Part shown: in pieces, positions 14,070-19,152 of the stretch
Layout: each line of letters opens with the position of its first letter
Position numbering within the stretch: position 1 is the stretch's first letter
NCBI GenBank assembly: GCA_019244185.1
Contig: JAFATB010000019.1
Location: 128,001-192,000, forward strand
Source of the DNA: Acidobacteriota bacterium
Lineage (GTDB): Bacteria > Acidobacteriota > Thermoanaerobaculia > Gp7-AA8
Reading direction: 5' to 3'
Length of the DNA stretch: 64,000 bases
The notes under the pieces: model-generated
The model's database searches: none
What the model was told of the DNA's origin: nothing
Seen by the model: only the letters and a program-made list of their open reading frames with translations
Program-made: the position numbers and the translations under genes

Positions 14070-15647
14070 ATGTTTTCCGACCTGATCGAGAGACTGCGAG
14101 CGCTCTCCCCGCGCGGGAGACGGCCGGACCGCGTCTCGATCCTGCTCCCCTTCCTGATCATCTCCATCGGCCTCGGCGCGCTCGCCTGGCGCTCGTTCGA
14201 TCTGTCGCGCAAGACCGAGCTCAGCGCGAAGACGCTCGCGATTCAATACGCCGGCTACTCGGCCGAGATCGCCGCGCGCCGCGTCGACGCCGCCGTCCGC
14301 ACCGAGATGATCCGCGCCTCCGATGACTGGCGCCAGACCGAGCGCCGCGACGGCGCGCCGACGTTCGCCTCCGTGCGCGAGTGGGTCGCGCAGCGCGGCT
14401 GGATCGTCTCCGCGATCTACGTTCCCGACGACGATCCGGCCAGCTCGGTCTACGTCAGCGAGCTCGCCGCGCACGACCACGCCGTGCGCCTCTCGCGCGA
14501 GATCTTCACCTCCAGCGGCACGATGCGCTACACCTACGATCCACGCCGCCTGCTCCAGGCCGTGCAGGACGCGGTCAAGCAGCAGCCGCTCGTGCGCGTC
14601 GGCGCTGAAGCGGGACTCCCGATCGGCCAGCGCGCCGACCTCACGCTCGTGCTCGATCCGCACGTCGAAGGTCTGCAGCGCGTCGATGACGGCTACCGCT
14701 TCACCGCCGCGCTCGCGCCGCCGCTGCAGGCGTACGGCGTCCGCGCCGCCGTGCGCACCGCGTACGTCGGCGGCCGCGGCTGGGAGAACCAGCGCTTCGT
14801 CTCGCTCAGCGTGAGCATCCTGGCCATCATCCTCACCGGCGCCGGCGTCATGCTCGCGCTGCGCGGCATGAACAAGGAAGCGGAGACGACCAAGCTCCGC
14901 GGCGCGCTCATCGCGAACGTCTCGCACGAGCTGCGCACGCCGCTCTCGATGATCCGCCTCGGCGCGGAGACGCTCAAGCTCGGACGCCTCAAACCGCAGG
15001 AGCGCGCCGAGATCGAGGACCAGATCCTCCGCGAGGTGCTGCTCCTCTCGCACCTCGTCGAGAACGTGCTCGATGTCGCGCGCATGCAGAACCGCAGCAC
15101 GAAGGCGCTGGCCTTCACCGCCGTGCATCCGCGTGACCTCATCCGCGGCCTCGTCGCGACGTACGAGGGCTGGATCCGCAGCAAAGGCTTCACCGTCGCG
15201 CTCGAGCTCGACGAGAGCATCGGTCCGCAGATGTGGGACCGCGACGCCGTGTCGCGCGCGCTGCTCAACCTCATCGACAACGCCATCAAGTATTCGAACG
15301 ACGACAAAGCCATCGACGTCGCGCTGCGCGAGACCGCGGAGCACGTCGTCATCGAGGTGAAGGACCGCGGCATCGGCATCGACGCCAAGGACGCGGCGCG
15401 CATCTTCGATCCGTACTACCGCGCGAAGTTCTCCGACACCATCACGCGCCGCGGCGCCGGACTCGGACTCACGCTCGTGCAGCAGATCGTGCATTCGCAC
15501 GGCGGACGCGTCGAGCTCGAGTCGCAGCCCGGCGCCGGCTCGACCTTCCGCCTGCTCTTCCCGCGCGAGCTCGCGGACGCCGCGGCCGACGACGCGACCG
15601 ACTCGCGCCGCTCGCTCGGCGAAACCCTCGCCCCCGGACTCCCGTAA
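14070..15647 (+). CDS. membrane sensor histidine kinase
   Basis: 2 TM helices, SHELRTPL H-box, NLIDNAIKY, DRGIGI, GAGLGL. Confidence 0.95.
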   Translation: MFSDLIERLRALSPRGRRPDRVSILLPFLIISIGLGALAWRSFDLSRKTELSAKTLAIQYAGYSAEIAARRVDAAVRTEMIRASDDWRQTERRDGAPTFASVREWVAQRGWIVSAIYVPDDDPASSVYVSELAAHDHAVRLSREIFTSSGTMRYTYDPRRLLQAVQDAVKQQPLVRVGAEAGLPIGQRADLTLVLDPHVEGLQRVDDGYRFTAALAPPLQAYGVRAAVRTAYVGGRGWENQRFVSLSVSILAIILTGAGVMLALRGMNKEAETTKLRGALIANVSHELRTPLSMIRLGAETLKLGRLKPQERAEIEDQILREVLLLSHLVENVLDVARMQNRSTKALAFTAVHPRDLIRGLVATYEGWIRSKGFTVALELDESIGPQMWDRDAVSRALLNLIDNAIKYSNDDKAIDVALRETAEHVVIEVKDRGIGIDAKDAARIFDPYYRAKFSDTITRRGAGLGLTLVQQIVHSHGGRVELESQPGAGSTFRLLFPRELADAAADDATDSRRSLGETLAPGLP

Positions 15648-15673
15648 CATTGCCGTACAACGGAGCGTTTTGA

Positions 15674-16390
15674 ATGACGAAGATCCTGATCGTGGAAGAC
15701 GAGGCGGGACTGAGGCAGGGACTGGAGATCAATCTCCGCCACGAGAATTACGAGACGGCCACGGCCGCCGACGGCGAGGAGGCCATCCGCCTCTTCCACG
15801 CTGAGAGCCCCGATCTCATCCTGCTCGACCTCATGCTGCCGAAGAAAAGCGGATTCGAGGTCCTCGACCACATCCGCAAAGTCTCGAAAGTGCCGGTGAT
15901 CCTGCTCACCGCGCGCGGCCAGGAGACCGACAAGGTCCGCGGTCTGCGCGGCGGCGCGGATGACTACGTCACCAAGCCGTTCGGCGTGCAGGAGCTCTTC
16001 GCGCGCATCGACGCGGTCATGCGCCGCAGCGAGGTCGTGACGACGACGGCGCGGTCGATCTGCGAGGACTCGCTGATCCGCCTCGATCCCGCCACGCGCG
16101 AAGCCTCGGCGAACAATCAGAAGCTCAAGCTCTCGCCGAAAGAGTTCGATCTGCTGATGTACCTCTTCAAGAACAAGGAGCGCGTCGTGCCGCGCGACGA
16201 GCTGCTCTCGCGCGTCTGGAACTATCGCGTCGATCTCAACCTCAACAGCCGCACCGTCGACACGCACGTCACGCGTCTGCGCCGCAAGCTGCAGAAGGCG
16301 GTCGGCACCGACGCCGCGGTCATCGTCGCCGTCGCGAAGATCGGCTACCGCTACCTCGGCGAGGCCAGCGGCTCGGCGGTGGCGCGCTGA
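15674..16390 (+). CDS. OmpR/PhoB-family response regulator
   Basis: REC domain (VEDE, LDLMLP, KPF) plus winged helix (RTVDTHVTRLRRKL). Confidence 0.95.
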   Translation: MTKILIVEDEAGLRQGLEINLRHENYETATAADGEEAIRLFHAESPDLILLDLMLPKKSGFEVLDHIRKVSKVPVILLTARGQETDKVRGLRGGADDYVTKPFGVQELFARIDAVMRRSEVVTTTARSICEDSLIRLDPATREASANNQKLKLSPKEFDLLMYLFKNKERVVPRDELLSRVWNYRVDLNLNSRTVDTHVTRLRRKLQKAVGTDAAVIVAVAKIGYRYLGEASGSAVAR

Positions 16391-16424
16391 TCGCGATGCA
16401 GGACCTGGAGTAGAATCCGCCGCA

Positions 16425-16493
16425 ATGTCTCGGACGACCGTTCACGCGTGCGCTTGTTGTCGGCCCGCCGCGGGTCCGTCCGAGGTTTGTTGA
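16425..16493 (+). CDS. putative cysteine-attenuator leader peptide MSRTTVHACACCRPAAGPSEVC (22 aa)
   Basis: ATG 8 nt after TAGAAT -10; 4 Cys codons; directly upstream of cysK and overlapping the alternative helices. Confidence 0.8.
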   Translation: MSRTTVHACACCRPAAGPSEVC

Positions 16494-16523
16494 TGGTCGT
16501 TTAAAAACCCAGCGAATCGAGAT

Positions 16524-16559
16524 GGACCCGAGCCGTTGCGCTCGGGTCTTTTTGTTTTT
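16524..16559 (+). terminator. intrinsic terminator (attenuator) in the cysK leader
   Basis: GACCCGAGC-cgttgc-GCTCGGGTC followed by TTTTTGTTTTT, 28 nt before the cysK ATG. Confidence 0.88.
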
Positions 16560-16587
16560 GCGCGAAAGAAAGGAACGGTTTCCCCTC

Positions 16588-17601
16588 ATGAGCGAACGTA
16601 CCGAACGCATTTACGACAACATCACGGACCTCATCGGCAACACGCCGCTCGTGCGCATCCGCAACGTCGTGCCCGAAGGCGCTGCGGAAGTGCTGGCCAA
16701 GCTCGAGTCGTTCAATCCGCTCTCGTCGGTGAAGGATCGCATCGCCATCTCGATGGTGCGCGAGGCGGAGAAAGCGGGCGAGATCGGTCCGGGCTCGACG
16801 ATCATCGAGGCCACGAGCGGCAACACCGGCATCGGTCTCGCGTTCGTCGCCGCCGCGCTCGGCTACCGCTGCGTGCTGGTGCTGCCCGATACGTTCTCGA
16901 TCGAACGCCGCAAGCTGTTGCAGGCGCTCGGCGCGGAGCTGATCCTCACGCCCGGCCCGATGGGCATCAAGGAAGCGCAGCGCGTCGCCGGCGAGTACGC
17001 GGAGAAGACGCCGGGCGCGTGGCTCTCGCGCCAGTTCGACAATCCCGCGAACGTGAAGATCCACCGCGAGACCACCGCGCGCGAGATCCTGCGCGACACC
17101 GGCGGCCGCGTCGACGCCGTCGTCGCAGGAGTCGGCACCGGCGGCACGGTCACCGGCGTCGGTCAGATCCTCAAACAGGAGCTCGGAACGAACGTGCAGA
17201 TCGTCGCCGTCGAGCCGATCGAGTCGCAGGTGCTCAAAGGCGGCACGCACAGCCCGCACAAACTGCAGGGCATCGGCGCCGGCATGATCCCGGCGATCTA
17301 CGACGCGAGCGTCGTAGACCGCGTGGTCGACGTCTCGTCCGATGACGCGTTCAAAACCTCGCGCCGTCTCGCGAAAGAAGAAGGCATCTTCGTCGGCATC
17401 TCCTCCGGCGCCATCGCCTGGGCCGCGTTCCAGGTCGCGAAAGACCTCGGCCCCGGCAAGCGCGTCGTGGTCGTCCTTCCCGACACCGGCGAGCGCTATC
17501 TGTCGACCGCGCTATTCGAATACACGGACCTCGTGAACCAGCCAGCGACGACGCCGCAGATGCTCGCGGAGCGCGCGGGAGCGACGGCGCAGGCACCTTA
17601 G
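16588..17601 (+). CDS. cysK: cysteine synthase A
   Basis: IGNTPLV, SVKDRIA (PLP Lys), EATSGNTG, GVGTGGT, HKLQGIGAG, PDTGERYLST. Confidence 0.96.
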   Translation: MSERTERIYDNITDLIGNTPLVRIRNVVPEGAAEVLAKLESFNPLSSVKDRIAISMVREAEKAGEIGPGSTIIEATSGNTGIGLAFVAAALGYRCVLVLPDTFSIERRKLLQALGAELILTPGPMGIKEAQRVAGEYAEKTPGAWLSRQFDNPANVKIHRETTAREILRDTGGRVDAVVAGVGTGGTVTGVGQILKQELGTNVQIVAVEPIESQVLKGGTHSPHKLQGIGAGMIPAIYDASVVDRVVDVSSDDAFKTSRRLAKEEGIFVGISSGAIAWAAFQVAKDLGPGKRVVVVLPDTGERYLSTALFEYTDLVNQPATTPQMLAERAGATAQAP

Positions 17602-17610
17602 AAGGAAAAG

Positions 17611-17722
17611 CGAATTTAGAACGCAGAACGCAGAACGCTGAATGAAGAAATGGGAACCGGCGCGACGCGCGCCGGGCGGGGGCTTCTCAATTCTTCATTC
17701 TGCATTCTGCGTTCTGCATTCC
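17611..17722. repeat. heptamer-repeat inverted-arm element, copy B
   Basis: AGAACGC/GAATGAA tandem arms; shared 19-nt core at 17683-17701. Confidence 0.85.
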
Positions 17723-17761
17723 GGCCCGGCACAAAGCACGTTCCCGCCTATCATTCGCGTC

Positions 17762-18373
17762 GTGGACACCCGCGCCGGTTCCGTCGCTTTCCTGGCCGCC
17801 GCCCTCCACCTCCTCGCCGCTCTCTCCCTCCTCCTTCTCCTCCAACCCGCCCTTCCCGGCGCGGCGTATCCGGCGCGCATCGCCTATCTCGAAACGCACC
17901 GCGCCGCGTGGACGCTCGGCTGGCTCACGTGGCAGCTCGCGGCGATGTCGCTCCTCGCGCTCATGGCCGTGCTCGCGTTGCGGTTTCGCGGCACGGTTGC
18001 GGTCACCGCGATGTGCATCGCGGCGGCGGCGTTCTCGATCGACTTCGCGTCGGAGTCGCGTTACATGGGAGTTCTGCCGGAGCTGCGCGGCGACGCGTTC
18101 GCGGCGCTCGATCGCGAGCTCGACGTGCTGATCGGCTTCGCCGCGAACGGGCTGTACACGATCGCGCTGGCGTTGCTCGTCGGTGCGGGCTGGCGCGCGT
18201 TGCCGAGCGCGGCGCGCATCCTGGCGGTGCCGGTCGTCGCGAGTGGACTCGCGCTCGCGGCCGCGTCGCTCGCACATGACGCGCGCGCGGAGACGATCAG
18301 CTCCGCGGTGCTGTTTCCGCTGCTCGTTTTGTGGATGATCGTGGTGGGATTGTGGCTGCGAAGAAACGCGTGA
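17762..18373 (+). CDS. hypothetical multi-pass membrane protein
   Basis: ~6 hydrophobic segments; GTG 7 nt after TATCAT. Confidence 0.75.
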   Translation: MDTRAGSVAFLAAALHLLAALSLLLLLQPALPGAAYPARIAYLETHRAAWTLGWLTWQLAAMSLLALMAVLALRFRGTVAVTAMCIAAAAFSIDFASESRYMGVLPELRGDAFAALDRELDVLIGFAANGLYTIALALLVGAGWRALPSAARILAVPVVASGLALAAASLAHDARAETISSAVLFPLLVLWMIVVGLWLRRNA

Positions 18374-19152
18374 TCGTCCTCGGCGCGCGCGGCGTGTTCG
18401 GCTCGCTGCTCGCCTCTGAGTTGCAGCGCGACTACGACGTCGTGCCGCTCACGCGCGGCATGGCGTTCGATCCGCGCGGCGCGTTCGCCGTCGCCTGCGC
18501 GGCCGGTCCGTTCCAGCAACTCGATCGCGGCCTCGTGCGCACGACCGTCGATGCCGGCGCGCACTGGCTCGACATCGCAGACGACGAGATGTGGTTCTTC
18601 GATCTCATCGACGATCGCGCGCTCGACGCGCGTGCACGCGAGCGCGGCGTCGCCGTGATCCCCGGACTCTCGACTCTACCCGCGCTCTCCGGCGCGCTCG
18701 TGCGGCGGCTCGGCGCGCCGCCGCACGTCACGCTCACGCTCTTCATCGGCAACAACAACCGCAAAGGCGTCGCCGCGATCGCGAGCGCGGCGCAGTCGGG
18801 CAACGGTCCGCTGCGCACGCCCGATCGCGAGCTGCTGCGCCGCGAGCTCGGCATCGACGCGCAGGCGTTCGTGAAGTTCGAAATCCCCGTCGCCGCGCCG
18901 CTGCTGCGTTTCCTCGGACGCGCGCCGCGTCTCGCCGCCGCGATCGCGAAGCCGTTCCGCTTCGGTACACGCGGCGGCTACGTCGAAGCGCGCGCGGGCA
19001 ATCGCGTCGAACGCATTCGCGGCGGCGATCAACGGCTCGCGATTCTGCCGCTCGTCTTCGCCCTGGCGCGGCTCGACGACGTCCGCGGCTGCCATGCGCC
19101 GAGCGTCTTCGATGCCGAGGAGCTACTGCGATTCGTGGAGGCACGCGCGTGA
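18352..19152 (+). CDS. saccharopine dehydrogenase-like NAD(P)-binding protein
   Basis: VLGARGVFG Rossmann motif, CAAGPF, HWLDIAD; start uncertain. Confidence 0.75.
   Translation: MAAKKRVIVLGARGVFGSLLASELQRDYDVVPLTRGMAFDPRGAFAVACAAGPFQQLDRGLVRTTVDAGAHWLDIADDEMWFFDLIDDRALDARARERGVAVIPGLSTLPALSGALVRRLGAPPHVTLTLFIGNNNRKGVAAIASAAQSGNGPLRTPDRELLRRELGIDAQAFVKFEIPVAAPLLRFLGRAPRLAAAIAKPFRFGTRGGYVEARAGNRVERIRGGDQRLAILPLVFALARLDDVRGCHAPSVFDAEELLRFVEARA

Follow-up and report, generated by a model that had tools for sequence, protein, structure and literature searches.

A conserved cysteine-codon leader that is most likely a transcription attenuator of cysK in Thermoanaerobaculia

We examined the region upstream of cysK, the gene for cysteine synthase A, in a 64,000-nt stretch of DNA from an Acidobacteriota bacterium of the class Thermoanaerobaculia (contig JAFATB010000019.1, positions 128,001 to 192,000; hereafter the window, to whose positions all coordinates refer unless a contig is named). 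An earlier note, made from the sequence alone, had proposed a trp-style cysteine attenuator with a Cys-rich leader peptide at this site. Our analysis indicates that the leader is most likely a real and conserved Cys-codon transcription attenuator of cysK in Thermoanaerobaculia, probably with a leaderless start, and predicted to respond to cysteine. It is very probably ribosome-mediated, of the trp/his/leu type, and would thereby couple cysK transcription to the supply of Cys-tRNA(Cys). The source genomes are all metagenome-assembled genomes (MAGs) of uncultured bacteria, and the support for the attenuator is in silico only.

The leader begins with a -10 box, TAGAAT, followed after 8 nt (CCGCCGCA) by the ATG of a 22-codon open reading frame (ORF) in which four codons specify Cys, at positions 9 (TGC), 11, 12 and 22 (all TGT) (Table 1). 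These elements agreed with the earlier note to the base, and the helices it had described were likewise all found where it had placed them. Helix 1:2 joins CTCGGACG (16429-36) to CGTCCGAG (16477-84), helix 2:3, the antiterminator, joins CGGGTCCGTC (16471-80) to GATGGACCCG (16521-30) through 10 pairs, one of them G-U, and helix 3:4, the terminator, runs into a U-tract. The minimum free energy (MFE) fold lengthens helix 1:2 to 12 pairs with one bulge (16428-39 with 16473-85), and helix 2:3 can be extended by 3 pairs beyond a 1-nt bulge. The terminator stem (16524-16549) consists of 10 pairs, 7 of which are G-C, closed by a loop of 6 nt and followed by TTTTTGTTTTT; by one estimate the energy of this hairpin is -17 to -21 kcal/mol, and it ranges from -11 to -21 kcal/mol over 22 same-genus sequences. 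The attenuator ends 29 nt before cysK, which starts at 16588, and not at 16589-90 as the end coordinate in the earlier note had implied.

To learn how widely this arrangement is kept, we compared cysK upstream regions of 22 same-genus genomes, whose cysK orthologues show 74-85% protein identity. The same build was recognized by eye and by script in 15 of the 22: TAGAAT or TACAAT, an ATG 7-10 nt on, a Cys-rich ORF, GGGTCC, and then GGACCC...GGGTCC with a T-tract. A covariance model built from 15 sequences (R1) took the place of an alignment of 15 leaders with MAFFT and RNAalifold, which had misaligned the helices and yielded almost no consensus structure. With R1, 22 of 35 same-genus genomes, among them that of the window, each gave a single strong match (E <= 4e-11). 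Order-wide (E <= 0.01), it matched 48 of 123 other genomes of the family, spread over 14 of 43 genera, and none of 3 genomes in two other families; strict filters make these order-wide counts lower bounds. At all 20 inspected hits outside the genus, a small ORF (sORF) with a Cys run was followed by a terminator and stood directly before a cysK starting MHG(R/K)IY. A second covariance model, built from 41 sequences (R2), detected the element in 25 of the 35 genomes sampled from the family and at 43 of 71 cysK loci from GTDB species genomes, with none of the 7 loci labelled as other phyla carrying it. All 21 complete same-genus leaders have the G+C-rich hairpin and T-tract, as do the 20 inspected ones from outside the genus. 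Among the 22 same-genus rows, those of G002 and G024 belong to genomes flagged as unpublished, and no conclusion rests on them. Weak model hits at G011:C78, in G187, G231 and G177 and at a second site in G065 proved false, as did one at C4:267227 of the genome that holds the window, where the model had matched a terminator behind an ATP synthase c-like gene.

The sORF itself is under a narrow coding constraint. A Cys ORF was found in 58 of 62 distinct matched sequences, and 56 of these 58 distinct leaders carry a main run of 2-5 Cys codons. Outside the run the peptide drifts and its N-terminal residues diverge (for example MRTALRCCCCCG, MTRCCRSTGPFEAP and MKRTTCCRRYNGPFERT), and the recurrent residues GPFE correspond to segment 2 (GGT CCG TTC GAG). 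Indels within the leader ORF measure 3, 12 or 15 nt, while the spacer after the stop codon varies by any length. Two leader types can be told apart, a long one of 21-29 codons whose stop lies 9-18 nt after GGTCCG, and a short one of 18 codons whose stop directly follows GGTCC(G/A); the Cys run, segment 2 and the terminator are kept in both. TGT and TGC swap among the leader Cys codons, with TGT making up 103 of 179 (58%) in leaders versus 682 of 6197 (11%) genome-wide, as counted in 1432 long ORFs with high G+C at third codon positions (GC3) from the window's genome (67% G+C), which agrees with the earlier note's description of TGT as the minority codon.

The start of the leader is also conserved in its setting. 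Among the 58 distinct leaders the start codon is ATG in 55 and GTG in 3, a TANNNT box lies 6-11 nt before it in 53, and none has a consistently placed Shine-Dalgarno sequence. An ATG 8 nt after a -10 box and without a Shine-Dalgarno sequence implies that the leader ORF is probably leaderless or nearly so, a point that the earlier note had not reached. In one same-genus genome (G019) the whole leader is absent and TAGAAT stands 8 nt before the ATG of cysK itself, which thus appears to be leaderless there; this arrangement speaks for the promoter assignment and also for leaderless starts being in use. At two further loci (L003 and L020) only the -10 box and a terminator-like hairpin are left. 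Judging from these loci, the attenuator is a feature that has been lost in several ways within one genus.

We then asked whether the helices covary, using pair counts on a model-based alignment of the 22 same-genus sequences, which are close kin and whose alignment was fitted to the model. Antiterminator pairs were formed in 77% of cells, and in 8 of 14 pairs both partners had changed; as high a score came from 4 of 500 column shuffles, and slid controls gave 19-58% paired. For helix 1:2 and the terminator taken together, 72.8% of cells were paired and 10 of 20 pairs had changed on both sides, a value reached by 1 of 500 shuffles. Helix 1:2 by itself, in a detailed analysis within the genus, was paired in 71.5% of cells, and both partners had changed in 7 of its 11 pairs. 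One genome carries GGGTCT, AGACCC and GGGTCT in segments 2, 3 and 4, respectively, versus GGGTCC, GGACCC and GGGTCC in the others, and helix 1:2 pairs CGGACG with CGTCCG in the window versus CGAACG with CGTTCG in most relatives. The alignment of cysK upstream regions in related genomes, which the earlier note had put forward as a check, shows a kept Cys run and kept helices, with modest covariation. The trp-style logic of that note was borne out by these comparative data, in Cys codons, in helices 1:2, 2:3 and 3:4, and in the presence of cysK downstream.

Predicted folds are consistent with two alternative states. The free leader RNA folds into helix 1:2 plus the terminator in the window and in most relatives. 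To represent the stalled state, we folded only the RNA that starts 12 nt past the run's final Cys codon and ends with the terminator 5' arm; in all 22 same-genus sequences the best fold paired this arm with segment 2. The energies of this antiterminator state were -14 to -30 kcal/mol, versus -11 to -21 kcal/mol for the terminator, with z from -0.5 to -5.0; in the window the segment reached -30.1 kcal/mol (z = -5.0), and none of 300 shuffles was as good. Within hairpin 1:2, the Cys codons occupy the loop and the upper part of the stem. In 21 of 22 same-genus leaders the final codon of the Cys run begins at mRNA nt 31-37 (at nt 46 in the remaining one), and in 21 of 22 sequences it is separated from the first paired base of segment 2 by 12-17 nt. 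Given the usual footprint of a ribosome, segment 2 would therefore begin right at the leading edge of a ribosome stalled there. The earlier note had suggested that a ribosome stalled at Cys9-12 masks segment 1 and frees helix 2:3; the folds and the geometry favor the second half of this proposal, whereas the ribosome would sit between segments 1 and 2 rather than over segment 1.

From these features we propose how the element could operate. Transcription would start a few bases past TAGAAT, placing the mRNA 5' end at or within ~3 nt of the leader AUG, and a ribosome loaded at this leaderless start would translate the 22 codons while RNA polymerase transcribes the remaining leader. When Cys-tRNA is plentiful, the ribosome would reach the stop codon (16491-93) and cover most or all of segment 2, so that the 3:4 terminator could form and transcription would end in the U-tract at ~16550-16559. 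When Cys-tRNA is scarce, the ribosome would stall at Cys codons 9-12, most of them the rare TGT, keeping segments 1 and 2 apart, with segment 2 exposed immediately beyond the ribosome's front. That segment would then pair with segment 3 once the latter is made, the terminator would be blocked, and the polymerase would read into cysK. If the leader were not translated, helices 1:2 and 3:4 would both form and transcription would terminate. Read-through from the two-component regulator operon upstream, in which the leader AUG would be internal and without a Shine-Dalgarno sequence, should also terminate here.

Several observations weigh against a ribosome-mediated attenuator and have to be set beside this evidence. 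The whole-leader fold in the window is only moderately unusual (z = -2.5, with 4 of 200 shuffles folding equally well), hairpin 1:2 alone is not (z = -0.3), and the antiterminator score is weak in 2 of the 22 sequences (z = -0.5, equalled by 81 of 300 shuffles). Covariation support is modest, with the core GGGTCC/GGACCC pairs barely varying. Thermodynamic folding with a ribosome mask, in which segment 1 could still pair across the ribosome, did not discriminate between the states, and the terminator mostly won; a terminator that wins at equilibrium despite the mask means that the switch must be kinetic, as in classical attenuators. The -35 hexamer is poor (CTGATC, at 17-nt spacing and overlapping the stop of the upstream gene), a sigma-70 consensus scan of 15600-18000 returned no promoter, and the spacing of the cysK Shine-Dalgarno sequence, 13 nt in the window, exceeds that of relatives. 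Of the 35 same-genus genomes, 12 lack the element and one has a degenerate copy, so it is dispensable. Lastly, the transcription start, the 3' end and the translation of the leader are predictions. Four soil metatranscriptome runs that we mapped covered only conserved parts of two flanking genes (at 90-95% likeness), leaving 16406-16609 uncovered, and are silent on expression; six soil metatranscriptomes contain 4-6% of the words. It is the conservation across relatives, and not the stability of the fold in the window, that decides that the element is not due to chance.

The same data bear on how the leader might be read otherwise. One could keep the attenuator and give up the leaderless start, with transcription beginning further upstream or coming from the regulator operon, and with the leader AUG used without a Shine-Dalgarno sequence inside a 5' untranslated region (UTR). 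A poor -35 and a transcription start that is only inferred speak for this, as do the 20 of 58 leaders in which a -10-like box lies 10 nt from the ATG, which would give a 5' UTR of 2-4 nt. Yet a -10-like box lies within 6-11 nt of the start in nearly all leaders, the leaders have no consistent Shine-Dalgarno sequence while cysK does carry GAAAGGAG, and the same box recurs 8 nt before the cysK ATG in G019, so we consider a longer 5' UTR unlikely. We would give still less weight to a Cys-sensing leader ORF that acts by another route, whether by translational attenuation through occlusion of the cysK ribosome-binding site or by Rho-dependent termination, with the hairpin and U-tract incidental. 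This route has precedents, in that the leaderless poly-Cys sORF Ms5788A of Mycobacterium smegmatis acts on translation and an M. tuberculosis sORF precedes cysK1-cysE (10.1101/834739), and the end of the transcript at the U-tract is itself a prediction. It is countered by the cysK Shine-Dalgarno sequence (16570-75), which lies outside every predicted helix, by segment 2, which is complementary to the terminator 5' arm and not to the ribosome-binding site, and by the presence of the hairpin and T-tract in every complete same-genus leader and in the inspected leaders of other genera.

A terminator that belongs to the upstream two-component operon, with the cysK promoter further downstream and the Cys-rich ORF arising by chance, would explain why no other terminator lies between the regulator stop (16390) and cysK and why the consensus promoter scan came back empty, and G+C-rich DNA does easily yield short Cys-containing ORFs. 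However, the element accompanies cysK where the upstream gene differs (the G002 and G014 loci, and genera that have a TTGAC -35 box of their own), in relatives whose cysK still adjoins the regulator but has no leader the terminator is absent too, the Cys run, the reading frame and the spacing from -10 box to ATG are conserved across genera, and each genome yields one model hit, with the inspected hits outside the genus standing before cysK. On this comparative evidence we regard a plain operon terminator beside a chance ORF as excluded for practical purposes. Equally improbable in our view is a functional Cys-rich micropeptide (metal- or redox-binding, or the precursor of a modified peptide) encoded beside cysK or co-transcribed with it, the helices being secondary. 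Cys-x-Cys-Cys and GPFE do recur in many leaders, but conservation is limited to the Cys run and to the GPFE residues that segment 2 encodes, the length varies from 12 to 29 residues with the stop shifting by up to 11 codons, the enrichment of rare TGT fits slow decoding and not peptide function, and analogous Thr-, Tyr- and Phe-rich leaders stand before thrS, chorismate mutase and pheA. The ribosome-mediated transcription attenuator thus remains the reading that we prefer.

How does such an attenuator compare with those already described? The classical attenuators of Escherichia coli (trpL, hisL, leuL, pheL and thrL) share with it a short ORF rich in codons for the end product, hairpins 1:2, 2:3 and 3:4, the last of which is an intrinsic terminator, and termination as the default state, which for the cysK leader is a prediction. 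Attenuators are known to employ rare codons, which are read slowly, in the regulatory run, and the rare synonymous codons of leuL have their counterpart in the cysK leader. In contrast to the classical cases, the cysK leader would sense cysteine, starts 8 nt after a -10 box without a Shine-Dalgarno sequence, and carries its regulatory codons atop hairpin 1:2 rather than in segment 1. There is also no sequence relationship: an Rfam scan at a permissive threshold gave only chance-level matches of 14-17 bits versus thresholds of 39-95, the best being Leu_leader with 15.5 bits versus a gathering threshold of 50, and among the curated Rfam Leu, His, Trp, Thr and Phe leaders, T-box and riboswitches no family reached its gathering threshold.

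Cys leaders have been reported in other phyla. The uORFC-8-2 motif lies upstream of cysS in Rhodobacterales and combines tandem Cys codons with a terminator (Brewer et al. 2021, Breaker laboratory, PMC8632094). As described there, it is likewise a predicted ribosome-mediated attenuator, and it shares with the cysK leader an upstream ORF with conserved Cys codons in tandem, a terminator stem and U run, and use of both UGU and UGC. It is set apart, by that description, in controlling a cysteinyl-tRNA synthetase, in belonging to Alphaproteobacteria, and in having its Cys codons at positions 14-15 within the first stem; UGC dominates in uORFC-8-2 and TGT in the cysK leader, and a leaderless start is not part of the uORFC-8-2 description. 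In Deinococcus deserti, leaderless leader peptides have been mapped, including a peptide with two Cys before cysS, and transcription attenuation was proposed (de Groot et al. 2014, PMC4007540). The likeness here extends to Cys codons before a cysteine-related gene, to the proposed mechanism and probably to a leader AUG at the transcription start, whereas phylum and gene (cysS) differ, the passages on this peptide give neither alternative helices nor covariation, and the transcription start is mapped by experiment in D. deserti and inferred for the cysK leader.

A further comparison is with the leaderless poly-Cys sORFs of mycobacteria, which attenuate translation in M. smegmatis (Canestrari et al. 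2020, 10.1101/834739), in a study that states that attenuation for cysteine mediated by an upstream ORF had not previously been described. As reported there, these sORFs (Ms5788A, and Rv2334A before cysK1-cysE) are leaderless, as the cysK leader probably is, head cysteine operons including cysK with consecutive Cys codons, and have their repression lifted by a ribosome stalled on those codons. They differ in acting on translation, with the Cys tract pairing with the Shine-Dalgarno region of the next gene and, in that account, without a terminator or antiterminator. In the cysK leader the partner of segment 2 is the terminator arm and the cysK Shine-Dalgarno sequence is free, so that no pairing of the Cys tract with it was found. 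The earlier note's statement that actinobacterial Cys leaders lack terminators was correct according to the account of Seliverstov et al. 2005 (PMC1262725), which places no terminators behind them. Its suggestion of novelty was too strong, as terminator-type Cys leaders are known before cysS. According to Naville and Gautheret 2010 (PMC2965389), attenuators predicted in Acidobacteria have no functions assigned to them. Within the full-text literature that we searched, with the survey of Lopatovskaya et al. 2010 outside its scope, nothing described a Cys leader before cysK that switches between terminator and antiterminator, and we found no characterised attenuator in Acidobacteriota.

Leaders of a similar build occur before other genes. 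A scan of the window's own genome for a -10 box with a start codon 5-11 nt on, then a small ORF and finally a terminator, returned the Cys leader and two others. A relaxed scan that dropped the -10 condition and looked for amino-acid-rich small ORFs before terminators gave mostly noise, and a class-wide search for five consecutive Cys codons was uninformative, with a frequency equal to that of the reversed control and dominated by CTG/GCT repeats in other frames. Outside the window, the same genome holds a Tyr-rich leader (MNHSALRYAYYYGYYS; C21:58534-58584, + strand), followed by a terminator and then, from 58680, by a chorismate mutase gene (TIGR01807, 96 aa). The leader's -35 (TTGACA) and -10 (TACCCT) are separated by a spacer of 17 nt, its ATG comes 9 nt after the -10, and it has the appearance of a tyrosine attenuator on the same leaderless plan. 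A Thr-rich leader (MTRTTTTAQTRTGRTPAPCR; C21:107842-107904, - strand) lies 9 nt after TATACT and is followed by a terminator and then by thrS (TIGR00418, 716 bits); its first codons, AUG ACU CGA ACG AC, resemble those of the Cys leaders.

In other genomes, matches that scored low with the Cys model proved to be sister leaders before other genes. Those at 28-36 bits are Phe-rich: L053 (G019:C115:35871-36022), L054 (G016:C368:9900-10051) and L083 (G089). These Phe-rich leaders (MTRTFARFFAFTSSIGARPRSV; MVHRSLRFFSFFSSTRAGSVTV) each have a -10 box 8 nt upstream and a terminator. One (MTRTFARFFAFT...) precedes prephenate dehydratase in two same-genus genomes, with a family match for L053, and another (MVHRSLRFFSFF...) stands before a pheA-like gene in another genus of the family, the L083 gene being judged a prephenate dehydratase by its N-terminal sequence alone. 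In another family of the class, leaders with five Cys codons in a row (VNSAATRCCCCCH... and VNASLIARCCCCCR...) and an intrinsic terminator precede cysH, the gene for 3'-phosphoadenosine 5'-phosphosulfate (PAPS)/adenosine 5'-phosphosulfate (APS) reductase, at L076 (G181:C19) and L080 (G157:C38); the identity of cysH was established by family match for L076. These loci suggest that Cys attenuation extends beyond cysK and beyond a single family. In a third family of this class, an FYFYF leader (MAPSAPAVSSGFYFYFTPETGRCGPPA; L079, G201:C119) and a terminator lie upstream of the gene for 3-deoxy-D-arabino-heptulosonate 7-phosphate (DAHP) synthase, a candidate aromatic amino-acid attenuator. Several of all these leaders open with AUG-NCU-CGN-ACG (M-x-R-T). 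This shared 5' module would also serve as segment 1 and might, more speculatively, mean that new attenuators arise by swapping the regulatory codons in a common leaderless chassis.

Directly upstream of the leader in the window lie genes for a histidine kinase (525 aa) and an OmpR/PhoB-type response regulator (238 aa), together spanning 14070-16390 on the + strand, and the adjacency of this pair to cysK is common to most same-genus genomes. No terminator of its own was found for the pair between the regulator stop and the leader. The sequence GAAAGGAG precedes cysK in relatives. On the 3' side of cysK, two ORFs of 243 aa (apparently a membrane protein) and 273 aa occupy 17642-19152 (+ strand), and neither matched an NCBIfam family at E <= 0.001.

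Table 1. Features of the cysK leader region and adjoining genes, in window coordinates.
Feature	Position	Strand	Basis
-10 box TAGAAT	16411-16416	+	read in the window; TANNNT box kept in relatives
Leader ORF MSRTTVHACACCRPAAGPSEVC, 22 codons plus TGA, without Shine-Dalgarno sequence	16425-16493	+	frame and Cys run kept in relatives
Segment 1 (TCTCGGACGACC), 5' arm of hairpin 1:2	16428-16439	+	MFE fold
Regulatory codons TGC GCT TGT TGT (Cys9, Ala10, Cys11, Cys12)	16449-16460	+	TGT-enriched in leaders
Segment 2 (CGGGTCCGTCCGAGG), partner of segment 1 or segment 3	16471-16485	+	folds, pair counts
Segment 3 (TCGAGATGGACCCGAGC), antiterminator 3' arm and terminator 5' arm	16517-16533	+	folds, pair counts
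Segment 4 (GCTCGGGTCT) and U-tract TTTTTGTTTTT, predicted intrinsic terminator with segment 3	16540-16559	+	terminator stem
Shine-Dalgarno-like AAGGAA of cysK	16570-16575	+	outside all predicted leader helices, unpaired in all folds
cysK, cysteine synthase A (O-acetylserine sulfhydrylase), 337 aa	16588-17601	+	TIGR01139, 420.5 bits, cut-off 350.95
OmpR/PhoB-type response regulator gene, 238 aa, outside the attenuator	15674-16390	+	no terminator of its own before the leader

The principle of attenuation is itself unchanged by this finding, which would supply a 'textbook' cysteine attenuation for a biosynthetic gene, where earlier leaders of cys operons lack terminators or act on translation and the terminator-type ones so far described control cysS. 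It adds a conserved cis-regulatory RNA family of at least 58 distinct sequences from at least 14 genera, with a model fit for submission to Rfam, and offers genome annotation a rule for locating small ORFs missed by gene callers. In this lineage, an uncultured soil group, gene regulation is almost unstudied, and the element implies that these Acidobacteriota translate leaderless mRNAs, with a coupling of transcription and translation tight enough for attenuation. More tentatively, and with somewhat less than even confidence, we suggest that a lineage-wide network of leaderless attenuators may exist in Thermoanaerobaculia, with Cys leaders for cysK and cysH (cysH in another family), Thr for thrS, Tyr for chorismate mutase, and Phe for pheA and DAHP synthase. 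If so, it would be the first case of leaderless translation combined with classical attenuation as a general control strategy in Acidobacteriota.

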